IMG/VR virus record: IMGVR_UViG_3300029825_000015
Span: 1 to 46,576 of that record
Strand: one strand, 5' to 3'
Length of the DNA: 46,576 nucleotides
Source: a virus
Taxonomy: Duplodnaviria; Caudoviricetes
Position 1 is the stretch's first letter. Every line of letters starts with the position of its first letter. A program made the translations under genes and the position numbers. Under the pieces are notes generated by a model that saw nothing but the letters and a program-made list of their open reading frames with translations, was not told where the DNA came from and did no database searches. Shown piece by piece: positions 4,386-46,473 of this stretch.

Positions 4386-7085
4386 TTGGCATTAAATAAA
4401 CAAATACATATTTACAGTATGGATACTAATGATTTCTATACTGACAGCGAAAATAAGATTTATCGTAGTATGATGCGCTTTGGTAAAAGAAAAAATAAAT
4501 TAAATAAAATAAATATTAGTAACTATGATGATGTAAAACGTGATAAATATCAAAAATTGTATTCATATATTAATCAAAGATTAAAACAATTAAAATCTGA
4601 ATTAAAATTAGAATTTAAAAAAAGTAATATCTCTATAAGAACTTTAAATCCAAAAAGTCTATTAGACAAAAATGTTATATCTGTTTTTGAATCTTCGTTG
4701 ACAAGAATAATTGGTTTAAAAATTGATGAACTGACGACTGATATCATGGTTGTACAAACATTTTTCTATGAAGTAATAGAGCAATTAATTAAAAATGGTT
4801 TCACATATAATGGTGAAAAGTACAAATACTTTACTTCTAGTGCAGGGCAGATTCGATTAAAAAAAACTGTATTCATTAAACAATCATTATGGGATAAATT
4901 TGAAAAAACATTAATGTGCGGATTAACAATAGATACTATTAATAAAAAAGGTGGAATAAATGTAAATAAATTTTTAGCATATTTAGCTTTATCTAATAGT
5001 GCTACTGATTTATGGGAAGATTTTGATATTAATAGGTGTATTGTAGTAGATGATTTTGAAACTATGGTCACTGGTGAAGTAGATTATATTAGTGACATTA
5101 CATATAAAATTGAACGTAAAAAGATGGAGATTCCAATTACACATACTGATGGTAGTGGAATGATATTACCTGCATTAAGCAAAAAGAATTTTATGGTTAG
5201 GCTTCCGTGGATTAAGGGATTACTTGCATCATTTGATTATGTAAAATTTATTAAGATGTACAATTGCTCTCCTATTGTTACTGATATTTACGGTAAGCGA
5301 TGGAATATAATTGAGGATAATATACAAATTATTTTTACAAAAAGTCAATTTAAAATGTATAAGTATTATAAGTCATGGGATGAATATAAAACATTTTTTA
5401 AGCAGTTCAATTGTCAAGCCGGAATTTGTAACATGGAAGAAGATTATTTTTCAAGAGTAACTATAAACTATCAAATGGTACAAACATTAACTGATATTAC
5501 AAAAGAAGAAGTAAATAAAATTACAGAAAGATCTAAAAATAGGTTATATAATCTTTCTAGGGATAAAACTACAATGCTTAATGCTTTTGGCGTGACAAAG
5601 AGTAATTATGATAAAACTTATCTACAGCAAGCATTAGAAATTTATCCTGAATTACTTCAAGATGAACACTGCAAATACATATTAAGACAAATTAAAAAAA
5701 GTCTAATTAAAAAATATAAATCAGCCAAGCTTGATATATATGGTAAATATACATTTTTAATACCTGACTTATATGCTTTTTGTGAATATCTATTTCTACA
5801 CATTGAAAGTCCTAAAGGTTTATTACAAAATGGTGAAGTATATTGCAAATTATTTAAAAAATCAAAAAAATTAGATTGCCTAAGATCACCACATCTTATG
5901 ATGGAACATGCAATTAGGAATAATGTTATTGATAAAGAAAAATCGAAATGGTTTAAAACGGATGCTATATATACTAGTAGCCATGACTTAATATCCAAAG
6001 TACTTCAGTTTGATGTAGATGGTGATAAATCTTTAGTTGGAGCAGATGAAACTTTTATATCTATAGCAGAAAGAAATATTAAGAAATTTAATATTGTTCC
6101 ACTTTATTATGAAATGAAAAAAGCAGAACCGGTCATACTTAGTCCTAATACAATATGGCAAGGATTGAATGCAGCGTTTAGTGGTGGAAATATAGGTCTA
6201 TATAGTAATAATATATCCAAGATATGGAATAGTGATGTTTTTATTAGCGGTACTTATAAAGATCAAATGGAAGCATTAGATGTTATTAAGTTATTATGTA
6301 TGGAAAATAACTTTGTAATTGATTATGCCAAAACATTGTACAAACCAACTCGACCTGAGCATGTTGATTTATTAATTAAAAAATATATAAATGCAAAGTT
6401 GCCGCATTTTTTCATATATGCAAAAGATAAATCAAGTACTCAAGTAGAAAATATCAACAACAGTTTAGTTAATAGATTTGATAAGGAATTTAAAAATACA
6501 CCTTTAAGATTTTCTATTGATAATTTTGGAAAGTTGGATTATAAAAATTTAATGAATGATAAAAATATTAAAATAGATGAAAAGATTATTGAAATATATA
6601 ATTCATTAAATCGTACATATCATTTCAAAATAAATCAAAAAAATCAAGATAATGTTAATTATATTATAAAATTAATAAGAGATAAATTACTTAGTTTTGA
6701 CTATTATAGTGAAATTGAAATTACAGATATGATAGTAAAACATTTATATACAAAAAAAACACCACATAAAGAAATTTTATGGAAGTGTTTTGGAAATGTA
6801 TTAGTTAATAATTTAAAAAACAATATTCCTGAAAATAGTATTCAATGTAAAAAATGTGGATTACGATTTATACCAAATAAATCGAATCAAAAGTTATGTG
6901 ACAAATGTAGTACATATCAACCTATCGGTATTAAGATTATTAAATGTATTGACTGTGGTAAGGATATTGAAGTGGATGCATTAGATAACCAAACAAATCG
7001 TTGTGAAAAATGTTATGAAATATATCGTAAAAAATATAAGGCAATTAAAGAAAAGGAACGCAGGGATAGGCTTAAAAGTGAATAA
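4386..7085 (+). CDS. yonO: YonO-like single-subunit two-barrel phage RNA polymerase with C-terminal Cys-rich zinc-binding region
   Basis: TDGSG, RSPHL and catalytic QFDVDGD (DxDGD) motifs; 899 aa; upstream of SPbeta-type late genes; four C-terminal CxxC pairs. Confidence 0.9.
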   Translation: MALNKQIHIYSMDTNDFYTDSENKIYRSMMRFGKRKNKLNKINISNYDDVKRDKYQKLYSYINQRLKQLKSELKLEFKKSNISIRTLNPKSLLDKNVISVFESSLTRIIGLKIDELTTDIMVVQTFFYEVIEQLIKNGFTYNGEKYKYFTSSAGQIRLKKTVFIKQSLWDKFEKTLMCGLTIDTINKKGGINVNKFLAYLALSNSATDLWEDFDINRCIVVDDFETMVTGEVDYISDITYKIERKKMEIPITHTDGSGMILPALSKKNFMVRLPWIKGLLASFDYVKFIKMYNCSPIVTDIYGKRWNIIEDNIQIIFTKSQFKMYKYYKSWDEYKTFFKQFNCQAGICNMEEDYFSRVTINYQMVQTLTDITKEEVNKITERSKNRLYNLSRDKTTMLNAFGVTKSNYDKTYLQQALEIYPELLQDEHCKYILRQIKKSLIKKYKSAKLDIYGKYTFLIPDLYAFCEYLFLHIESPKGLLQNGEVYCKLFKKSKKLDCLRSPHLMMEHAIRNNVIDKEKSKWFKTDAIYTSSHDLISKVLQFDVDGDKSLVGADETFISIAERNIKKFNIVPLYYEMKKAEPVILSPNTIWQGLNAAFSGGNIGLYSNNISKIWNSDVFISGTYKDQMEALDVIKLLCMENNFVIDYAKTLYKPTRPEHVDLLIKKYINAKLPHFFIYAKDKSSTQVENINNSLVNRFDKEFKNTPLRFSIDNFGKLDYKNLMNDKNIKIDEKIIEIYNSLNRTYHFKINQKNQDNVNYIIKLIRDKLLSFDYYSEIEITDMIVKHLYTKKTPHKEILWKCFGNVLVNNLKNNIPENSIQCKKCGLRFIPNKSNQKLCDKCSTYQPIGIKIIKCIDCGKDIEVDALDNQTNRCEKCYEIYRKKYKAIKEKERRDRLKSE

Positions 7086-20430: not shown

Positions 20431-20934
20431 ATGGCATCAGATACTACTTCTTTTGATATTATATGTGATAGGTTTTACAAACGATTAGAAAAAGATGATG
20501 AATTTTTTAATTACTATAATATTGAGATGTCAGAAGCACAAGAATTAGCACATAAAAGAGCAAAAGGATATCTTATAGATGTTCTTGATAAACTTTCACA
20601 GGTTGGTGATTTACAAGTTGATTTTTCCGACTATGATGAAGAATTAGAAGTAATTAACTTTGAAATAAAGCCAAAGGAAATTCGCCTAATAGTTGACTTA
20701 ATGTTTCAAGAATACATGGAAAGGGATATTCCTTTATTACATGCTTTTAAAATTAATTTTACGCCATCAGATTTAAACATCATTACTCCATCCACTGAAA
20801 GAAGAACATATACCGATTTAATTGACTCATTAAATACCAAAAATGAAGCCAGTTTGGATAACTATAAAAATAGAGATCGTAATACCGGTAAATTATTAAA
20901 GGTTATCGACTATTCGAAATATGGTGATGAATAA
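20431..20934 (+). CDS. Putative head-tail adaptor
   Basis: Synteny and size; AAGGAGG SD. Confidence 0.5.
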   Translation: MASDTTSFDIICDRFYKRLEKDDEFFNYYNIEMSEAQELAHKRAKGYLIDVLDKLSQVGDLQVDFSDYDEELEVINFEIKPKEIRLIVDLMFQEYMERDIPLLHAFKINFTPSDLNIITPSTERRTYTDLIDSLNTKNEASLDNYKNRDRNTGKLLKVIDYSKYGDE

Positions 20935-21983
20935 TGTTGGACTTTGATTATTTTTATAAAATACAAGGCTCTTATGGGATGAAAAATAAGCGTGAAAAAG
21001 ATTTGGCGAAAATTAATTATGAAATGTCAAAACATTTCGAAGATACCACGGATTGCAAGGATGTACTAATCAATGGAGAACCATCTCAGTTAATTATTGT
21101 AAAAGATACAGATTCGAATGTCTATAGTAAAAAGATTAAATCAAGGCATGATGATAAATTTAATCTTGGAGATTATGTTGAGTGGAATAATCAACATTGG
21201 ATTGTTTTGAAACTCGATCCAGATGAAGATACATGGAATCGTGGATATATGTATTTGTGCGATATATTACTTTGTTGGCAAAATAAAGCCGGCGACATTA
21301 TATCGCGTTGGTGCTACTCAGAAAATTACACAAAATATACAAATGGGATAAAGGAAAATAAAGTAATAGATGTTGGTGATAATCAATATGGTTTATCTCT
21401 TCCAGTGGATAATGAAACTAAAGTATTAAAACGTAATTTACGATTTGCAATAGATTATGAAGGTGCAGTTGTTCCTGATGTTTATAAACTAACTAATAGG
21501 AAGGTTTTGCTTAATGATTATAGATATTTTAATCGAGGTGGAATAATTAATTTAACATTATCTTATAACGCTTTTAATGATAAAACAGATAAATTAGTTA
21601 CTCTTGATAATGGTCAAAAAGTATGGATATGCGACTATTTTGATATGAATAATAATCCTACTACACCAGAAGATAAAAAGACATATGCAAATATTATATC
21701 TAGTGGCAAACTAATCATTGGTTCAAAAGAATATATTACTTTTATTGCTAACTTTTATGATACAGATGGAAATTTAAACAATACTATTACTCCTGTATGG
21801 GAAATTATTAAACCTAATATAAGCAACGTTGATAATGATATATCAATTGTCTATGAGAATGGGTTATGTAAAATTAAGGTTGCTGAAAATTATGATTTAA
21901 TTGATAAAGATATTATAATTAAAGTAAGTGATGGTAATGATAGCTATATTGGTGAAATCACAATGAAAATGGAAATGTGGTGA
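20934..21983 (+). CDS. Putative head closure/neck protein with C-terminal Ig-like domain
   Basis: FNLGDYVEWNNQHWIV beta-barrel motif; beta-rich C terminus. Confidence 0.55.
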   Translation: MLDFDYFYKIQGSYGMKNKREKDLAKINYEMSKHFEDTTDCKDVLINGEPSQLIIVKDTDSNVYSKKIKSRHDDKFNLGDYVEWNNQHWIVLKLDPDEDTWNRGYMYLCDILLCWQNKAGDIISRWCYSENYTKYTNGIKENKVIDVGDNQYGLSLPVDNETKVLKRNLRFAIDYEGAVVPDVYKLTNRKVLLNDYRYFNRGGIINLTLSYNAFNDKTDKLVTLDNGQKVWICDYFDMNNNPTTPEDKKTYANIISSGKLIIGSKEYITFIANFYDTDGNLNNTITPVWEIIKPNISNVDNDISIVYENGLCKIKVAENYDLIDKDIIIKVSDGNDSYIGEITMKMEMW

Positions 21984-26625: not shown

Positions 26626-26695
26626 CATCAAACCGTGCTTTTAATCAACCTTAATTTTGATTGAAAATAACTAATTTTTATCGTTAATTAACGCC

Positions 26696-26833: not shown

Positions 26834-26867
26834 AAGGCAATAGATTTCATCGTCTATTGTCTTTTTT
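26834..26867 (+). terminator. Intrinsic terminator
   Basis: AAGGCAATAGA/TCTATTGTCTT stem followed by a T tract. Confidence 0.65.
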
Positions 26868-26912
26868 GTTGCGGTAGTTTATTTAAATTTAGTCTTAAAG
26901 GAAGTGATTTTT

Positions 26913-27947
26913 ATGGGTAGATCAACAGTTTATAATAATATTACAACACCAGAACTAATTGAACAAATATTAGAAGAAAATAAAGAGTTATATAAAGATT
27001 TTCTTGCTTATTTATCAAGTGTAGACAGGTCGGTTAAAACAATTAAAAGTTATGAGAGCGATTTAGAAATCTTTTTTGTATGGAATCTTCAATACAATAA
27101 AAACAAGGATTTTATTGATATAACAAAACGTGAGTTTGCTAAATTCCAAAATCATGCTTTAAATACTTGGGATTGGAGTCCAAATAGAATAAGGCGTGTT
27201 AAATCAACCCTATCTTCACTTTCGAATTATATAGAAAATATATTAGATGAAGAGCCAAAATATAAAGGATACCGCTCTATTATTAAAAAGATAGAAAATC
27301 CTGTTAAAGAAACTGTTAGAGAAAAAACAGTTTTAACTGATGAGCAAGTTGGTTCGCTACTTGATACTTTAATAGAACAAAAACAATATCAGCAAGCTTG
27401 TATAGTAGCTTTAGCAGCAATGAGCGGAGCGAGAAAGAGTGAATTATTAAGATTTAAAGTAGATTTCTTTTCAGATGAAAATATAGTTTTTGATTCGTTA
27501 TATAAGACTCCAAAGATATCAACAAAAGGGCGAGGAAAAAATGGAAAATTACTGAATAAATATGTCCTTTTAGACTTTAAAAAATATTTTGACTTATGGA
27601 TGGAAGAACGTGACGAATTAGGCATCGATAGTGAATGGTTATTTGTTACAAAACAGAATAGCGAATGGAAACAAATGAAAATAAGCACATTAAATAGCTG
27701 GGCTATAACATTTTCAAAAATATTAAATGTAGATTTTTATTTTCACTCACTCAGACATCAACTTTGTACTCGTTTACATAAACTTTCTCTTCCACAAGAT
27801 ATTATTCAAGAATACTTCGGATGGGATTCTGCTGAAATGCTAAAAATTTACAACGACATGGATTTATCGGAAGAGTTTGGAAAGTATTTTACTAAAGATG
27901 GAATCATTGAAGGTACGGTTGGAAATATTAATGATATAAGTAATTAA
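26913..27947 (+). CDS. Tyrosine recombinase (YomM-like, XerC/D family)
   Basis: SGARKSEL (R), TKG (K), HSLRH, FGW and KIY (Y) catalytic motifs; N-terminal core-binding region. Confidence 0.9.
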   Translation: MGRSTVYNNITTPELIEQILEENKELYKDFLAYLSSVDRSVKTIKSYESDLEIFFVWNLQYNKNKDFIDITKREFAKFQNHALNTWDWSPNRIRRVKSTLSSLSNYIENILDEEPKYKGYRSIIKKIENPVKETVREKTVLTDEQVGSLLDTLIEQKQYQQACIVALAAMSGARKSELLRFKVDFFSDENIVFDSLYKTPKISTKGRGKNGKLLNKYVLLDFKKYFDLWMEERDELGIDSEWLFVTKQNSEWKQMKISTLNSWAITFSKILNVDFYFHSLRHQLCTRLHKLSLPQDIIQEYFGWDSAEMLKIYNDMDLSEEFGKYFTKDGIIEGTVGNINDISN

Positions 27948-39898: not shown

Positions 39899-40690
39899 CT
39901 ATTCAAAATTATAATCATATACAAGTTTGCAACCTGTTGTTACTTCTACATCAAATTTAACATATTTTTTGTTACCAATAATTTGACTAAGGGTTTTTGT
40001 ATTTTCATTACCAAAATACTTAACCAAATCATCATCGTTGATCATGTTATATATTGCATCGTCACTGTCTATATATTCAGCAATCATTACAAGAAGATAC
40101 TCGCCATTACGTACTTTATTAAATCCATAAGTGGATATGTTATTATTACCTTCGTAATAAAAAGATGATTGTTTATAAAAAGTTTTTGGATCTTCATTTT
40201 CAATTAATATATTTTTTAATTCTTTTAATTCATATATAGGTTGTTCTTTATCTTTAGGGATTAATAATAAATCTACTGTACAAGGATTTACTTTATTTTC
40301 GTTATTAGTGTCAATATATGTTACTCCACCTGTAATACTTCCTACTTGTTCAGGTATTACAGTTACGTTACATTTATATTTCTTTTTTTGATAAGTTGCT
40401 GTAATTGTTGCTTCTCCTGCGGATTTGCCAGTAATTCTTCCATAATTATTTACTGTTGCGACAGATTTATCACTAGATCTCCATTTCATATCAGATTTTA
40501 TAGGCTTATCATCTTTTAATAATTGTACGTCATAACAAATTACTTTTTCTTCAATTGTTAATTCAGTGAGGCTTAATTTAATGTTACTCTTTTTTGATTT
40601 TGCATATGCTATGGAGCTACCGGTATATGCTGTAAAAACTATTGCTAATACGAGTACTAATGCAATTTTTAATTTATTTACTATTTTCAT
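39899..40690 (-). CDS. Secreted Ig-like (Big_2) domain protein, moron
   Basis: Signal peptide ending AYA; MKWRSSDKSVATVNNYGRITGKSAGEATITA Big_2 motif; AGGAGGAG SD. Confidence 0.85.
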   Translation of the reverse strand: MKIVNKLKIALVLVLAIVFTAYTGSSIAYAKSKKSNIKLSLTELTIEEKVICYDVQLLKDDKPIKSDMKWRSSDKSVATVNNYGRITGKSAGEATITATYQKKKYKCNVTVIPEQVGSITGGVTYIDTNNENKVNPCTVDLLLIPKDKEQPIYELKELKNILIENEDPKTFYKQSSFYYEGNNNISTYGFNKVRNGEYLLVMIAEYIDSDDAIYNMINDDDLVKYFGNENTKTLSQIIGNKKYVKFDVEVTTGCKLVYDYNFE

Positions 40691-40938: not shown

Positions 40939-41343
40939 ATGGCAGACATACATAAAGGAAGAGGATATGTGTATTCAATACAATATCATATAGTATGGTG
41001 TGTAAAATATAGACATAAAGTAATTAATGGCGAAATAGAAAATAAATTAAAAGAAATAATATATAAAATAGCAGAAGATAATAATTTTATTATCGAAGAA
41101 ATGGAAACTGATTTAGACCACATACACTTATTAATAGAATGTAGTCCCCAACATTACATACCTAATATAATAAAAGCATTAAAAGGAGTGTCTGCTAGAC
41201 TATTAATGAAGGAGTATGGATGTGTATTAAAAAGGAAATTATGGGGAGGACATTTATGGAATCCTAGTTATTTTATCGCCACAGTAAGTGAAAATACAGA
41301 GGAACAAATAAGAAATTATATTCAAAGTCAAAAAATCAAATAG
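40939..41343 (+). CDS. tnpA: Y1 HUH transposase TnpA
   Basis: YHIVWCVKYR, DHIHLL (HUH), LWNPSYF, IRNYIQSQ (catalytic Tyr). Confidence 0.95.
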   Translation: MADIHKGRGYVYSIQYHIVWCVKYRHKVINGEIENKLKEIIYKIAEDNNFIIEEMETDLDHIHLLIECSPQHYIPNIIKALKGVSARLLMKEYGCVLKRKLWGGHLWNPSYFIATVSENTEEQIRNYIQSQKIK

Positions 41344-41363
41344 AAAGGTAGGTGAATTTATCT

Positions 41364-42509
41364 ATGAAAACTGTAATAAAAGGATATAAATATAGAATAT
41401 ATCCAACCAAAGAACAAGAAGTGCAATTAGCTAAAACTTTTGGTTCATGTAGATTTGTTTATAATCAAATATTAGCAAAGAAAATAGAATTATATAGAAC
41501 AGATAAAAAATCTATAAGCAAAACAGATTGTAACAATTATTGTAATAGAGAATTAAAAAAGCAACATCTATGGCTCAAAGAAGTAGATAAATTTGCTTTA
41601 ACTAATTCTATTTATGATTTGGATAGAGCTTATCAAAATTTCTTTAGAGAAGTAAAAAAGGGTAATAAAAATCAAGGATTCCCCAAATTTAAGTCAAAGA
41701 AAAATCACTATTATTCTTATAAAACTAATTTTACAAATAACAATATTAAAGTAGATTTTGAGAATAATAGAGTTCAGCTACCTAAATTAAAATGGTTAAA
41801 AGCTAAACTTCATAGACATTTTGATGGTAGAATATTGTTCGCTACAATAAGCAAAACTCCTAGTGGTAAATATTTTGTTAGTTTTAATGTAGAATGTGAA
41901 CATAAGGAACTAAAACAAAACAATAACTCATTAGGAATGGATTTAGGAATTAAAGATTTATTAATTACGTCAGATGGCGAAGTATTTGATAATAAAAAAT
42001 TAACATATAAATATGAGTTAAAATTAGCTAAATTACAAAGACAGATTGCTAAAAAGAAGATAGGTAGTAACAAATGGAAGAAACAAAGAGTTAAAATTGC
42101 TAGAATATATGAAAAAATAACCAATATTAGAAAAGATAATTTAAATAAGATTTCTCACCAAATAGTTAAGGAAAATCAACTTATATTTAGTGAAAATCTT
42201 AATATAAAAGGTATGGTTAAAAATCATAATTTAGCAAAATCTATTCATGATTGTAGTTGGTATGAATTAACAAGACAACTAGCTTATAAATCAGAATGGA
42301 ATAATCGTATTTATCATAAGGTTGATAGATATTATCCTTCAAGTCAATTATGTAATGTATGTGGATATAAAAATAAAGATACTAAAAATTTAGGTGTTAG
42401 ATTTTGGATATGTCCTGAATGTCATACAAAACATGATAGAGATATAAATGCTAGTATAAATATTCTTAATCAAGGATTAAAGGATTTAGGATCAGATAAG
42501 GCAGTTTAA
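41364..42509 (+). CDS. tnpB: RNA-guided endonuclease TnpB
   Basis: YKYRIYP N terminus; RuvC D-E-D in GMDLG, FSENL and DRDINA; CNVC/CPEC zinc finger. Confidence 0.95.
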   Translation: MKTVIKGYKYRIYPTKEQEVQLAKTFGSCRFVYNQILAKKIELYRTDKKSISKTDCNNYCNRELKKQHLWLKEVDKFALTNSIYDLDRAYQNFFREVKKGNKNQGFPKFKSKKNHYYSYKTNFTNNNIKVDFENNRVQLPKLKWLKAKLHRHFDGRILFATISKTPSGKYFVSFNVECEHKELKQNNNSLGMDLGIKDLLITSDGEVFDNKKLTYKYELKLAKLQRQIAKKKIGSNKWKKQRVKIARIYEKITNIRKDNLNKISHQIVKENQLIFSENLNIKGMVKNHNLAKSIHDCSWYELTRQLAYKSEWNNRIYHKVDRYYPSSQLCNVCGYKNKDTKNLGVRFWICPECHTKHDRDINASINILNQGLKDLGSDKAV

Positions 42510-42660
42510 ATATATAAAAACAATAGGGTAGGAACTATCCAAATTAAGACGCCCATGGAGTTAGTAGGTTACGAGGACTATGAAGTGGGAAAATGATAGA
42601 GTAATCTTGAAGCACGCGACTTTAGTCGTGTGAGGTTCACAGAATTTAGAAAGTTGCCTG
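42510..42660 (+). ncRNA. TnpB omega/reRNA scaffold plus flanking guide (5' boundary uncertain)
   Basis: Established property of IS605 right ends; guide would begin AGAATTTAGAAAGTTG at 42641. Confidence 0.6.
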
Positions 42661-42773
42661 TAAGTAAAAATGAAAGGATTTATTTTGCTAAGAAAGATAA
42701 TGAAGTGAGGATTTACCTTTATGGTAGAGATATTATTGATAAAGATTTGTGGTTCTTATTTAAAAGGAAATAA
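42642..42773 (+). pseudogene. 3' fragment of a small gene cut by the IS right end
   Basis: Open frame EFRKLPVSK...FKRK ends in the 18-bp boundary motif; no SD on the left flank of the IS. Confidence 0.5.
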
Positions 42774-42804
42774 AAGAGTAATTCTATTAGATTGGAGAGA
42801 TAAG

Positions 42805-43050
42805 ATGGACGTAGAAAAACTGAAACAGAAGATAAAAGCATTAACGAGCAAATTAGAAAAAGAAGAAATAAAACTAAGTAAAGCAACGCCAACAAAACCA
42901 TTAATTAGTGACGAATCTGATTATAATAGTAAAAAGAAAGAGTTGATTCATAAGTATACTTATTTTTGTAGCTACTGTGGTGAGCCTATAAGAAAAAATT
43001 CAAAGAAACATATGTGCGGTCAAGTTCACGATTGGAGTGAAATTAATTAA
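42805..43050 (+). CDS. Small Zn-ribbon hypothetical protein
   Basis: GGAG SD before ATG 42805; CSYCG...HMCGQ motif. Confidence 0.7.
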   Translation: MDVEKLKQKIKALTSKLEKEEIKLSKATPTKPLISDESDYNSKKKELIHKYTYFCSYCGEPIRKNSKKHMCGQVHDWSEIN

Positions 43051-43096
43051 ATAATACGACCAAAACTATATTCTACTTTAAGAAAGGGCATCCATT

Positions 43097-43276
43097 ATGC
43101 AAAAACAAGATATGTCAGAAATGTGTGAATTTAAAAATGTAGAGTTATATTATAAACTTCAAAATGGTGAAATAACACAAGAAGAATATGATAATTATTG
43201 GGACAACTATTGTAGTAAATGTGAATATATGAATGAAATTTGTATGTATGGGGATGGAGATGAATTATGGGATTAA
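43097..43276 (+). CDS. Hypothetical protein (59 aa)
   Basis: AGAAAGGG SD, open frame overlapping the next gene start; below the track cut-off. Confidence 0.6.
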   Translation: MQKQDMSEMCEFKNVELYYKLQNGEITQEEYDNYWDNYCSKCEYMNEICMYGDGDELWD

Positions 43277-43482
43277 TAACAAATTTACTTACTAAGAATA
43301 AAACACAAATACCTTTGTTATATGTGACATTCGATTATAAGAAATTTACTGAAAATGGTAAGATTGGTTCTTGCATGGCGAATGCACATCCTGTAATAAG
43401 GAATGATGAAAATGTTATATTAAGGATAAATGAACTGATCGACTACATAAGAGACAATTATGATATGGATGATATTATATAA
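43267..43482 (+). CDS. Hypothetical protein
   Basis: GGAG SD; 71 aa. Confidence 0.7.
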   Translation: MGLITNLLTKNKTQIPLLYVTFDYKKFTENGKIGSCMANAHPVIRNDENVILRINELIDYIRDNYDMDDII

Positions 43483-43495
43483 AGCAATTATATTA

Positions 43496-43590
43496 GTCTG
43501 GTGTTATACCGAGAGTGGGCTGCTCTCAATCAAAATCAATCGTATACAATAACCCAAAGTAACCCTCCCACTTTGGGTATAGCACCAGAT
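43496..43590 (+). ncRNA. Candidate structured RNA (long closing stem with G-U pairs, C-rich loop)
   Basis: GTCTGGTGTTATACC pairs with GGTATAGCACCAGAT; internal hairpins. Confidence 0.5.
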
Positions 43591-43600
43591 ATTTGGACAT

Positions 43601-43781
43601 GTGGTCAGTGGCGAAAGTATAAACGCAGTGAAGACAATAATCTGCTCCCATACGGTGGAAGAAATCTATTAGTGTTGATACTTATGTACGCACGAAATAG
43701 TCTTAATGAAGAGATTGATGTCCGCACGAAGAAACATCCATGCAGGAGTGTTACAGTAGGTGAAAAGCCTTGCCTGACCAC
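43601..43781 (+). ncRNA. Candidate tRNA-like RNA with a large insertion at the anticodon position
   Basis: GTGGTCAG/CTGACCAC acceptor-like stem, GCG/CGC D-like arm, GTAGG-TGAAAAG-CCT T-like arm. Confidence 0.45.
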
Positions 43782-43801
43782 TTTAAAATGAAAGGAGATT
43801 T

Positions 43802-43942
43802 ATGAGTAATACACATTTTATTACTATTTCCAAAGAAGAATTTGATAAGATTGAAGTTGGAGATAGATTAGTTATTCAGAATGATGAAGATAGATATTGT
43901 TATGTAGTTTATGTTGAAAATAATGATAATCATAAAATGTGA
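43802..43942 (+). CDS. Hypothetical protein (46 aa)
   Basis: AAAGGAG SD; stop codon lies inside a boundary motif. Confidence 0.6.
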   Translation: MSNTHFITISKEEFDKIEVGDRLVIQNDEDRYCYVVYVENNDNHKM

Positions 43943-43969
43943 GTTCTATACGATGAGGAAGGAGTTGTT

Positions 43970-44137
43970 ATGAAAGTATTTGTAATTGAAAAAGATTTTG
44001 GTAGTGCAGGATGCTGGGGAATATATGAATCAGATTGGAAATTAACAAACATTATATTTACTGATGAAAGCAAGGCGAAAGAATATGTTAAGTACAACGC
44101 TGATTATTACAGATATAAAACAATAGAGACAAAATGA
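43970..44137 (+). CDS. Hypothetical protein (55 aa)
   Basis: AAGGAG SD; stop codon lies inside a boundary motif. Confidence 0.65.
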   Translation: MKVFVIEKDFGSAGCWGIYESDWKLTNIIFTDESKAKEYVKYNADYYRYKTIETK

Positions 44138-44171
44138 AATACAAGATTTATGAGATATTGGAGGTGGAGCG

Positions 44172-44345
44172 ATGAAAGATACAAGTATAACTACGATTAT
44201 AGAACGATTGAGAGAAAAGGGAGCCACTCATGTATATAGAATGATGGGTGACGAAGTATACATAGAAAAGTCAACTTTGAATTTAGCAGCGAGTTATTTG
44301 GATGATTTTTTATTAATATTAGAAAGTTTGGAAGAAGAACTGTAG
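44172..44345 (+). CDS. Hypothetical protein (57 aa)
   Basis: GGAGGTG SD; open frame; followed by a boundary motif. Confidence 0.65.
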   Translation: MKDTSITTIIERLREKGATHVYRMMGDEVYIEKSTLNLAASYLDDFLLILESLEEEL

Positions 44346-44393
44346 TAATATAAAATGCAAATTTCATGTTGTTTCCAGAAAGGAAGTGAATCA

Positions 44394-44846
44394 ATGAAAA
44401 TACAAATAAATGATATATCTAAATTTAGAATACTAAAGGTAAAAGATTGGTCTATTACTTTTGAATATGACGGTCAACAATATTTATTACATAGTTCATC
44501 AGAAACAGGAGAAGGTAGTTGGCAAGAATTGTATAAAAGAGATGTAGATAAAAATGGGAAATATAACTTAGAACATATATTAACTAAATCATATGCCAAA
44601 GATCATTTACCATCTGACTATATAAGGAATTATCACAAATATAAAACTTATGTTTATTCACAGATAGATAAAAGATACTTCATTATGAGATTAATATACA
44701 ATGATTTTGCTGAAGGAATTTTATCTGATGAAGTAGATAGTGTAAAGAATGAAATTAAGCTAAAGTATGATGAAATTAAGTTATACAGAGATAAAATTAG
44801 TTTACTTGAGAATGCCATTAGAAATTTAAAGCAGTTTAAAAAATAG
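44394..44846 (+). CDS. Hypothetical protein
   Basis: AGAAAGGA SD favours ATG 44394. Confidence 0.75.
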   Translation: MKIQINDISKFRILKVKDWSITFEYDGQQYLLHSSSETGEGSWQELYKRDVDKNGKYNLEHILTKSYAKDHLPSDYIRNYHKYKTYVYSQIDKRYFIMRLIYNDFAEGILSDEVDSVKNEIKLKYDEIKLYRDKISLLENAIRNLKQFKK

Positions 44847-44888
44847 AATCAATTATCAATTTTATTAGGAAAATTGGAGGCGAGGAAA

Positions 44889-45116
44889 ATGAAAATTAAA
44901 CAAGAAATTGACCTAGATATTTCAGCAAGCGATGTGGCAAGATTAATTTATGAAGATTGGGCAGATGGAGATGTGATTGACTTTTTGAATACAATTGGAT
45001 TATATCAAGACGATCTAAAAGATTTATTATCCGCAGCTAGAGATAGCTTATATAAATTGGATAATAAAGGAAGAGAAGCATTATCAATTATTGAATCCTA
45101 TTTTAGAAAGGAATAA
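44889..45116 (+). CDS. Hypothetical protein
   Basis: GGAGG SD favours ATG 44889. Confidence 0.7.
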   Translation: MKIKQEIDLDISASDVARLIYEDWADGDVIDFLNTIGLYQDDLKDLLSAARDSLYKLDNKGREALSIIESYFRKE

Positions 45117-45176
45117 TAAAGCAAATCAATATATCAATTTATTCAAAATCGTTAATATAAAACATAGAAAAGGAGA

Positions 45177-45506
45177 TTGAAAATGGATAAGTATATACCA
45201 AGTATAGGAGATGTTGTATTTGATAACGGAATACCAGTTGTTGTGATTAAAATGGTTAGCTATGAAGACGCCGGTAGTTGTGGTTATGCTAGAAAATATC
45301 TATTATGTGATGAAAAATACATAAGAGAAAATCAAGGTATTGTCACAATTAAAGATCTGGAACAGTATGGAAGATGGGTTAGTATAAACGGATTGCCTTT
45401 TCCTGACATTGATAAAGTGAATGATATTGCTCCATATAATATTAGTCAAGTTGAATATTATAATGTCGAACAAAAGGTTGCGAAAACAGTTACAATTTAT
45501 GAATAA
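45177..45506 (+). CDS. Hypothetical protein
   Basis: AAGGAG SD; start is TTG 45177 or ATG 45183. Confidence 0.7.
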   Translation: MKMDKYIPSIGDVVFDNGIPVVVIKMVSYEDAGSCGYARKYLLCDEKYIRENQGIVTIKDLEQYGRWVSINGLPFPDIDKVNDIAPYNISQVEYYNVEQKVAKTVTIYE

Positions 45507-45553
45507 TAATATAAAACTTTACTTTGATTGGATAATTAGAAAGGAAAATCAAA

Positions 45554-45829
45554 ATGGAATTTAGAGATTATTACATACGAAAGAAATCAGAAATTCAAAT
45601 TGCAAAAGATGAGATTGTTGAAAACATAATGAAGCAGCAAGGTATGTATGATATGTATTTTCTAGGATATATAGCTGTTATTGAAACACTAGTAAATTAC
45701 ATTGATAAAGAATACACTTTAGCATTGTTGAAAAATTTAACAGAATCACCTGAAACAAGTGAAATAATTAAGAAGTTAGCAAATGATTTGATTGACAAGT
45801 ATAGTAAAGAACCAAAGTTTGAGGTGTAA
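45554..45829 (+). CDS. Hypothetical protein
   Basis: AGAAAGGA SD; 91 aa. Confidence 0.7.
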   Translation: MEFRDYYIRKKSEIQIAKDEIVENIMKQQGMYDMYFLGYIAVIETLVNYIDKEYTLALLKNLTESPETSEIIKKLANDLIDKYSKEPKFEV

Positions 45830-45877
45830 AAGCACAGAGAATAACGCATTTATACGTTTAAGAAAGGGATATTAAAC

Positions 45878-46054
45878 ATGAATAGAAATCAAATGACCAA
45901 GCAACAATTAATTGATTTAGAAGAAAAGTATTGTACTAATTTATCTATTGGCGGATCTTGTTGGGCTTGGTGTCCATATAGAGAAAATGGTATGTGTGAA
46001 TTAGATATGAAGTTTGTTTTACATGAAGCAATCAGATTATTAAAGGAACAATAA
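45878..46054 (+). CDS. Small Cys-containing hypothetical protein (58 aa)
   Basis: AGAAAGGG SD; stop codon lies inside a boundary motif. Confidence 0.6.
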   Translation: MNRNQMTKQQLIDLEEKYCTNLSIGGSCWAWCPYRENGMCELDMKFVLHEAIRLLKEQ

Positions 46055-46090
46055 AACAACTGTTTATTGGTAGAAAGGAAGGAAAAATAA

Positions 46091-46429
46091 ATGGATAAAG
46101 CATATTTAGTTTATGAATCTTGGAGTATTACAGCAGATTCGAGTGTGGTAGGAGTTTTCTTGGATGAAAAGAAGGCAGATGAATACGTAGAGATACATAG
46201 CGAAAAGAGAAGACAAGAAAATGAACGTTATGAGAAGTGTTTTAATTGTAGAAATAAAATATGTAAAAGCGATGAAGAAGGAAATGGATTTAATTTTAAA
46301 GACACCTGTGAAAATGCTGTAATTAAAAAGGATAGACATGGGTTATATTGTGAAAATGATAATTCAGACTTTTATGAAACTGTATATTCAAATGATTATT
46401 GGAAGGTAGAAGTTGATATTTTAGGATAG
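46091..46429 (+). CDS. Hypothetical protein with Cys cluster
   Basis: AGAAAGGAAGG SD; 112 aa. Confidence 0.72.
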   Translation: MDKAYLVYESWSITADSSVVGVFLDEKKADEYVEIHSEKRRQENERYEKCFNCRNKICKSDEEGNGFNFKDTCENAVIKKDRHGLYCENDNSDFYETVYSNDYWKVEVDILG

Positions 46430-46473
46430 CATGAAAGAACGATTTCATGCGATATTAACAATATAAAACTATA

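Follow-up and report, generated by a model that had tools for sequence, protein, structure and literature searches.

Sites and small genes in the window

The DNA analysed here (hereafter the window) is the 46.6-kb virus record IMGVR_UViG_3300029825_000015, which contains a terminase and a structural module and belongs to a phage of the SPbeta-like group. Our subject is an array of small genes and short palindromic sites at its right-hand end. Each site consists of two inverted 6-bp arms around a 6-bp centre, and sequence comparison with related phages indicates that this centre behaves as an address: every copy has a centre of its own, and the order of these centres is preserved among relatives. 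The original prediction listed 11 such 18-mers, all of which were found where it had placed them. Six of these, with the centres gagtaa (42770–42787), tgtgag (43932–43949), tacaag (44134–44151), tgcaaa (44350–44367), ctttac (45511–45528) and gaacga (46431–46448), are among approximately the top 10 of 46,559 window positions scored with an independent matrix that was trained solely on 246 sites from eight other phage records, with gaacga giving the top score of the window. A further site with the centre tatcaa lies at 44848–44865. For the palindrome first placed at 46050, the palindrome itself is present but its register was off by one base; it starts at 46051 (46051–46068, ATAAAA caactg TTTATT), because the relative L324 has the centre caactg at the equivalent place in the order. 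The remaining three are weak under the independent matrix: actata (43059–43076, rank 1395) and the degenerate sites atatca (45125–45142, rank 367) and taacgc (45836–45853, rank 479). Relatives confirm only the last of these, its centre being found in both L324 and G033. The actata sequence exists as described but is unsupported as a site, and L324 has it only in an identical context.

Twelve co-oriented small open reading frames (ORFs) of 81, 59, 71, 46, 55, 57, 150, 75, 107, 91, 58 and 112 aa occupy the slots between sites (42805–46429, plus strand), none with a convincing family match. The 150-aa ORF had no relatives in viral contigs and returned only itself from the protein collection, and the 112-aa ORF found a single weak, unrelated locus (L326). 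The suggestion that every gene is delimited by a site does not hold for the overlap 43267/43276 or the gap 43482–43802, both of which lack one. As had been proposed, the cargo genes have no evident promoter, with promoter-like matches at chance (28 versus 28.0), and the plus strand of the array gave no terminator-like match. Within the gap, a 311-nt stretch (43485–43795, plus strand) folds far better than its shuffled versions (z −3.35, 0/100); having neither an Rfam match nor a 6-6-6 site, it is a candidate structured RNA or mobile-element remnant.

On the left, the array is cut off by an IS200/IS605 element (tnpA, tnpB; 40939–42509, plus strand), and through the region 40939–42635 the structural module runs directly into the early array partway along its length; in L324 that array extends further left. 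The gene at 42630–42773, whose stop codon is overlapped by the gagtaa site, is the 3′ end of a gene that is 180 aa long in L324, its 5′ part being missing from the window.

Counting the pattern with one mismatch allowed over the whole window gave no enrichment (18 versus 14.1 expected), so the signal is positional and position-aware tests were used instead. Here the anticipated enrichment at boundaries was evident: gene ends in the array score above matched interior windows (Mann-Whitney p = 2e-5 for 13 junctions versus 41 controls). Those at 3–40 kb show no excess over interior controls (29 versus 690, p = 0.11), and in L325, a continuation of the array that was held out, gene ends again score above controls (p = 0.006).

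Breakpoints in relatives of the window

The original prediction asked whether breakpoints in relatives fall at the motif, and such breakpoints were found in L324, in G033 and in 11 Bacillus genomes. L324 is 99.4% identical to the window from 42635 on, and exact identity ends precisely where the ctttac site does, its final base being 45528. Past this point L324 has an unrelated 148-aa gene followed by taacgc and then caactg, the next two centres of the window, with both flanks of taacgc differing from those in the window. G033 (locus L137) shares window positions 44860–45869, from the right arm of the tatcaa site to just past taacgc, and at the right end of this block the same taacgc centre is joined to new downstream DNA. 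L325 extends the window by 8.5 kb and carries the centres ttgcag, ggatga and actacg in the order seen in G033, with two different cytosine methyltransferases occupying the first slot of this series in the two phages.

Form and distribution of the motif

The site consensus ATRAAA-N6-TTTYAW recurs across the SPbeta-like phage group, SPbeta included. We found 30–39 perfect copies in each of 11 Bacillus SPbeta-like genomes, compared with about two expected, and 334 of the 361 copies lie outside gene interiors. Perkons has 49 perfect copies and G002 has 50 in 51 kb, and the contigs returned by a pattern scan of viral contigs include other phages with dense arrays at stop codons. Sites occur throughout the genome, and the stretch between two of them frequently contains more than one gene; single-gene modules account for 66 of 223 types. 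In the G002 array, some sites are adjacent and ‘empty’, with no gene between them (L035 2010/2041, 6034/6068 and 8389/8410).

A logo of 247 junction types from the Bacillus phages shows a weak extension of the dyad to 11-6-11, the outer 5 bp being weak and lineage-specific. The predicted core geometry of a tyrosine recombinase site is thus borne out, the simple form of such a core having inverted arms of about 11–13 bp around a centre of 6–8 bp; dif sites likewise have the 11-6-11 geometry in the accessible text of two studies (PMC2731167, PMC6449649). Pairing between the arms shows no covariation (70 unpairable A.C combinations versus 69.4 expected), which points to arms that act as double-stranded protein sites. 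Folding is no stronger than −3.1 kcal/mol for 10 of the 11 sites in the window, and Rfam gave no match for the site.

The centre as an address

The statistics on centres were drawn from 521 sites and 327 junction types in the 11 Bacillus genomes. Pairs of sites with the same upstream flank and unrelated downstream flanks have an identical centre in 96 of 111 cases, and those with the same downstream flank and unrelated upstream flanks in 103 of 136. Together, 199 of 247 pairs sharing one flank have identical centres, compared with 424 of 53,019 (0.8%) sharing neither, although the genomes are related and the pair counts, to that extent a weakness of the comparison, are not independent events. 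Since the centre is shared in both directions, we rejected the idea that it travels only with the upstream gene. As with a core site, the comparative data show exchange between identical centres with the crossover between the arms, although recombination in short homology would predict this identity as well.

Upstream and downstream flanks assort independently at a site, and left-arm variants go with the upstream flank while right-arm variants go with the downstream one, which places the switch between the arms. Nine four-gamete cycles at sites indicate, at the level of sequence comparison, that exchange there is recurrent. In 349 pairs of sites the centre agrees although neither flank is related, and the exact identity between the two members has a median of 18 bp. 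Different phages fill 33 of 136 slots with alternative contents. Near-identical tracts end at sites in 83 of 826 cases, compared with 7.4 expected.

Centre order is concordant in 21,249 of 21,374 pairs (99.4%), and 901 of 922 pairs of homologous genes lie in compatible slots. The idea of a gene-capture and shuffling system stands for gene exchange, which has its breakpoints at sites, but not for shuffling. At least three of the 11 genomes share each of 57 centres. Even in phages whose aligned parts are only about 80% identical to SPbeta, 21 of 32 centres are retained in each (6% by chance), and distant lineages carry centre sets of their own.

Candidate recombinase

A YomM-like tyrosine recombinase gene (26904–27947, plus strand), the candidate catalyst, lies just before the tape-measure gene, inside the structural module and about 15 kb from the array. 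Its residues R177, K208, H281, R284, W307 and Y316 are invariant in 16 aligned homologs, and 2,685 homologs were found at E ≤ 1e-40. The closest solved structures are XerA and XerH (PDB), and the best NCBIfam matches are XerA, XerS, XerC and XerD models, all far below cut-off. Of 31 recombinase-selected contigs above 100 kb, 25 were searchable, and all 25 exceed the reversed-pattern control in motif matches. Eight site-rich phages with YonO (G053, G059, G060, G061, G052, G020, G044 and G035) have no close homolog and carry another tyrosine recombinase; these alternative enzymes cluster with that of the window (quick tree, 19 rows, SH-aLRT 91) and occupy the same gene position where the neighbours are readable. 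Three large records without a PF00589 match (G024, G028 and G007) are site-poor. From this co-occurrence we consider the link between enzyme and site suggestive, with the counter-examples given below.

Several observations concern the surroundings and state of this gene. A further site (ATCAAA ccgtgc TTTTAA, 26627–26644, rank 16) lies just past the stop codon of the gene upstream of the recombinase, as part of two adjacent site-like dyads at 26627–26661, and just upstream there is also a perfect palindrome of 6-6-6 form whose arms are different (26840–26857; ATAGAT/GTCTAT, one mismatch); these could represent autoregulation or a slot boundary. In Bacillus phages (L540, L541, L545, L227 and L218) the recombinase gene is itself located between sites, and the enzyme at this position comes in three divergent subtypes. 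An internal stop interrupts the homologs in G043 (20554–21513), G045 (99880–100740) and G025 (1735–2703), of which G043 and G045 are still site-rich.

Proposed mechanism

With moderate confidence, and from sequence comparison, we propose that genes are swapped between addresses in SPbeta-like phages by site-specific crossover at matched spacers, probably through a phage Xer-like recombinase. A little less firmly, though still on the favourable side, we regard this as natural multiplexed cassette exchange in SPbeta-like phages of Bacillota, the genome being partitioned into numbered slots by dozens of heterospecific sites that a phage tyrosine recombinase serves. Recombinase subunits, putatively supplied by the gene before the tape-measure gene, would bind the arms as double-stranded DNA and cut where the centre begins and ends, with strand exchange succeeding only between equal centres. 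As the centres within one phage are unequal, the phage would neither delete nor reorder its own genes. When two related genomes meet in one cell, either as prophage and incoming phage or by co-infection, a crossover at address X would produce a cointegrate and a second at address Y would resolve it, swapping the whole X–Y interval with no need for homology in its contents. Multimer resolution at any address might, speculatively, keep the activity under selection. The first entry of a wholly new gene into a slot lies outside this scheme. In engineered recombinase-mediated cassette exchange (RMCE) with heterospecific lox or FRT sites, equal arms with unequal spacers forbid excision and permit a swap with a matching donor; unlike that artificial arrangement of two sites, a phage genome would have about 45 natural addresses if the mechanism holds.

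A number of results weigh against this proposal. Only 383 of 1,761 pairwise homology-block ends fall at sites, which make up about 2% of the DNA. Of the 457 junctions that have a site, 345 carry a breakpoint, as do 710 of the 1,591 that lack one. We rejected the explanation that the non-site breakpoints are cryptic sites (0.2–0.4% versus 0.5–0.9% in the control). The left breakpoint of G033 at 44860 has no shared centre, an irregular site with another centre being found there. The 91-aa ORF (window 45554–45829) has a homolog of 79% identity in L324 (10852–11127) that is displaced by one slot, lying between taacgc and caactg rather than between ctttac and taacgc. A few genes have changed to slots far apart, such as a 93% identical pair in BUCT083 (7186) and Goe11 (121744). 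No centre is repeated in gene orientation among the 42–54 sites of each genome, an absence that by itself is not significant (0 versus 2.0 expected), and five duplicate centres appear in the 11 genomes once orientation is ignored.

The association with the recombinase has exceptions as well. In G024, which has no PF00589 match, nine of nine motif matches are at junctions. Identical addresses occur with three recombinase subtypes, and the Bacillus phages G059 and G052, whose subtypes differ, each share 21 of 32 centres with the SPbeta set. SPbeta YomM has H-x-x-K, not H-x-x-R. Nine records (G047–G051, G054, G055, G072 and G073) have a close recombinase homolog and only 2–8 matches per strand; a de novo dyad search gave no alternative motif in G047 or in G024.

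Laboratory hybrids also bear on the proposal. Among five deposited phi3Ts/SPbeta hybrids, the crossovers lie in 1.4–18 kb of homology and are uninformative, aside from one in a 39-bp island without a site, which counts against site-specific exchange; short segments of 7–25 k-mers, probably parent-sequence differences, were left uncounted. The available part of a preprint by Dragos et al. describes 15 of 16 phi3Ts–SPbeta junctions as homologous, again an adverse result, and one as ‘nonhomologous’, in the region following yosA. SPbeta has a tattcc site (116414–116431) 90 bp beyond the 3′ end of yosA that has exactly 18 bp in common with the tattcc site of phi3T (107931–107948), and we infer that this may be the nonhomologous junction. 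In total, SPbeta and phi3T have six common sites with only 14–23 bp of identity between unrelated flanks (centres tgcata, tcgtac, agactg, tattcc, ttcaat and gtttta), which opens the mechanism to testing by PCR.

Alternative explanations

The alternative that survives best, although we consider it unlikely, is that the arms are binding sites for a phage or host DNA-binding protein and that swaps arise by short-homology recombination in islands of 18–30 bp, through a phage annealing protein or RecA, with the centres simply inherited by descent. Several of the adverse results above speak for it, namely the 39-bp crossover without a site, the majority of block ends away from sites and the addresses common to different recombinase subtypes, and SPbeta is annotated as encoding a Sak4-like annealing protein. 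A YorG query, however, matched just one (G009) of the non-Bacillus records tested. There is also a precedent, swapping by short homology having been proposed for PeSLs: in the accessible text of PMC2839356, PeSL cassettes of T4-type phages are repeats of about 100 bp with a promoter and a terminator that recombine with one another and make mini-circles. Like PeSLs, the sites recur in the intergenic spaces of a phage's ORFan genes as linkers and mark where modules are exchanged. Unlike them, they are 18–28 bp long, have no promoter or stable stem, differ in their centres and show positional replacement; the chance level of promoter matches and the lack of a plus-strand terminator-like match in the array do not fit the sigma-70 promoter and terminator stem-loop of a PeSL repeat.

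The junctions themselves speak against short homology as the whole explanation. Of 87 two-sided junctions, 72 have a shared island of 10–70 bp, and 62 of these 72 contain a site, compared with two of the 15 in which the overlap is below 10 bp. Junctions in short islands are concentrated on the motif (36 of 41 at 10–29 bp), whereas islands at ribosome-binding sites are rare at breakpoints despite being present at nearly every junction. Between same-centre sites with unrelated flanks the median island is only 18 bp. In addition, the strict 6-bp gap, the 11-6-11 extension and the free centre are features of a recombinase core, and a regulatory role for the arms fails to explain dozens of copies at stop codons without a promoter excess or the adjacent empty sites.

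Considerably less probable is that a pair of Xer-type recombinases of the host acts on the sites, as on the pdif sites of Acinetobacter plasmids, which, with the dif modules they bound, use XerC and XerD according to the accessible portions of PMC9455709 and PMC6449649. The shared 11-6-11 geometry fits, and a host enzyme would account both for addresses that are independent of the recombinase subtype of the phage and for the sites of G024, a record lacking a PF00589 match. As in pdif modules, many 11-6-11 sites on one mobile replicon bound exchangeable accessory modules. However, the arms here are symmetric, whereas in dif and pdif the XerC arm is distinct from the XerD arm, and comparing the logo with those dif sequences given in the available text of PMC2731167 revealed no such pair of dif-like arms, the right arm TTTYAW being unlike the TTATGTTAA arm of classical dif. 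While pdif centres form two clusters as far as the published excerpts go, the recurrent phage centres described above number dozens, each unique to its position and conserved in order. The replicon also differs, being a phage, and the enzyme is likely to be phage-encoded.

We give still less credence to a site that is purely a repressor operator (of the SPBRE/MrpR type) or an RNA element for processing or antitermination, with no role in exchange; a secondary regulatory role may exist alongside. The operator has a parallel in SPbeta, where the accessible text of PMC10516654 describes SPBRE, a repeated operator at ten promoters bound by the recombinase-fold repressor MrpR (YopR). Both elements are thus repeated and intergenic in the same phage family, with a recombinase-fold protein in each case. 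All 10 MrpR-bound promoters, however, share a different 15-mer and a 6-6-6 site is near only three of them, so identity of the site with SPBRE was rejected; SPBRE furthermore has 10 sites, at promoters, and the available text reports no exchange role for it. An RNA element is contradicted by the weak folding, the absence of arm covariation and the lack of an Rfam match noted above. Neither version explains the breakpoints at sites, which largely refute regulation or RNA processing as the sole role offered by the original prediction.

Integrons are defined by the integrase IntI, attI and attC, with the integrase, attI and the promoter Pc beside the cassette array. The array resembles them in its site–RBS–ORF units (RBS, ribosome-binding site) of small promoterless genes, in the presence of a tyrosine recombinase in the element, in the single-gene modules and in the rare moves between slots. 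The integron analogy of the original prediction, in which single-gene cassettes are excised as circles and reinserted in a new order, is nonetheless hardly credible: neighbouring centres differ, so a single gene has no matching flanks and circle excision is not expected; order and slot compatibility are conserved rather than reshuffled; the multi-gene slots are genome-wide; the sites show no hairpin covariation and, in 10 of 11 cases, negligible folding, unlike single-stranded attC hairpins; no IntI-specific model is among the NCBIfam matches listed; and the recombinase is 15 kb away, with no adjacent platform of integrase, attI and Pc.

Phage identity and neighbouring features

Outside the array, the window encodes a YonO-type single-subunit RNA polymerase (4386–7085, plus strand) that is 49% identical to SPbeta YonO, which places the phage in the SPbeta-like group; the SPbeta-type structural module, with YomG-like and YomM-like genes, agrees with this. 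Because close recombinase homologs occur in records labelled Clostridiales or Lachnospiraceae, the host is likely to be clostridial. Another record, G001, covers the structural region alone and stops before the array, and a first scan of genome contigs gave no match. Upstream of the YonO cluster, positions 1–2700 form a long AT-rich, gene-free stretch with reversed GC skew that may be an origin or packaging region. After the last tail gene, on the opposite strand, lies a secreted-looking protein with an Ig domain (Big_2; 39899–40690, minus strand).

Cargo and implications

In phi3T and four more genomes, the slot between gatagt and tattta contains nip, a known counter-defence gene (accessible text of PMC11984713). 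A 295-aa gene of phi3T and a 120-aa gene of SPbeta abut sites and match Gad1 and DSAD1, respectively, by length only, as those proteins are described in partial sources. By analogy, anti-defence cargo in the window array is plausible.

We found no description of an address-coded site element in the literature searched, the coverage of which is incomplete. The novelty rests on the address code, which is seen directly in the comparisons; should short-homology recombination account for the swaps, the sites would be a variant of the PeSL or linker kind. It has long been asked how phages swap unrelated modules at precise boundaries; linkers are one proposed answer, with PeSLs as an example. In the present case the joints are explicit and addressable, and they occur in a model phage, SPbeta, with full genetics. 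If our proposal is true, related phages would trade unrelated accessory and anti-defence genes between corresponding slots, with no deletion or reordering of their own genomes, and modular phage evolution would have a dedicated enzyme. If a recombinase is responsible, it would also be a new enzyme, one for which nature supplies many orthogonal sites.

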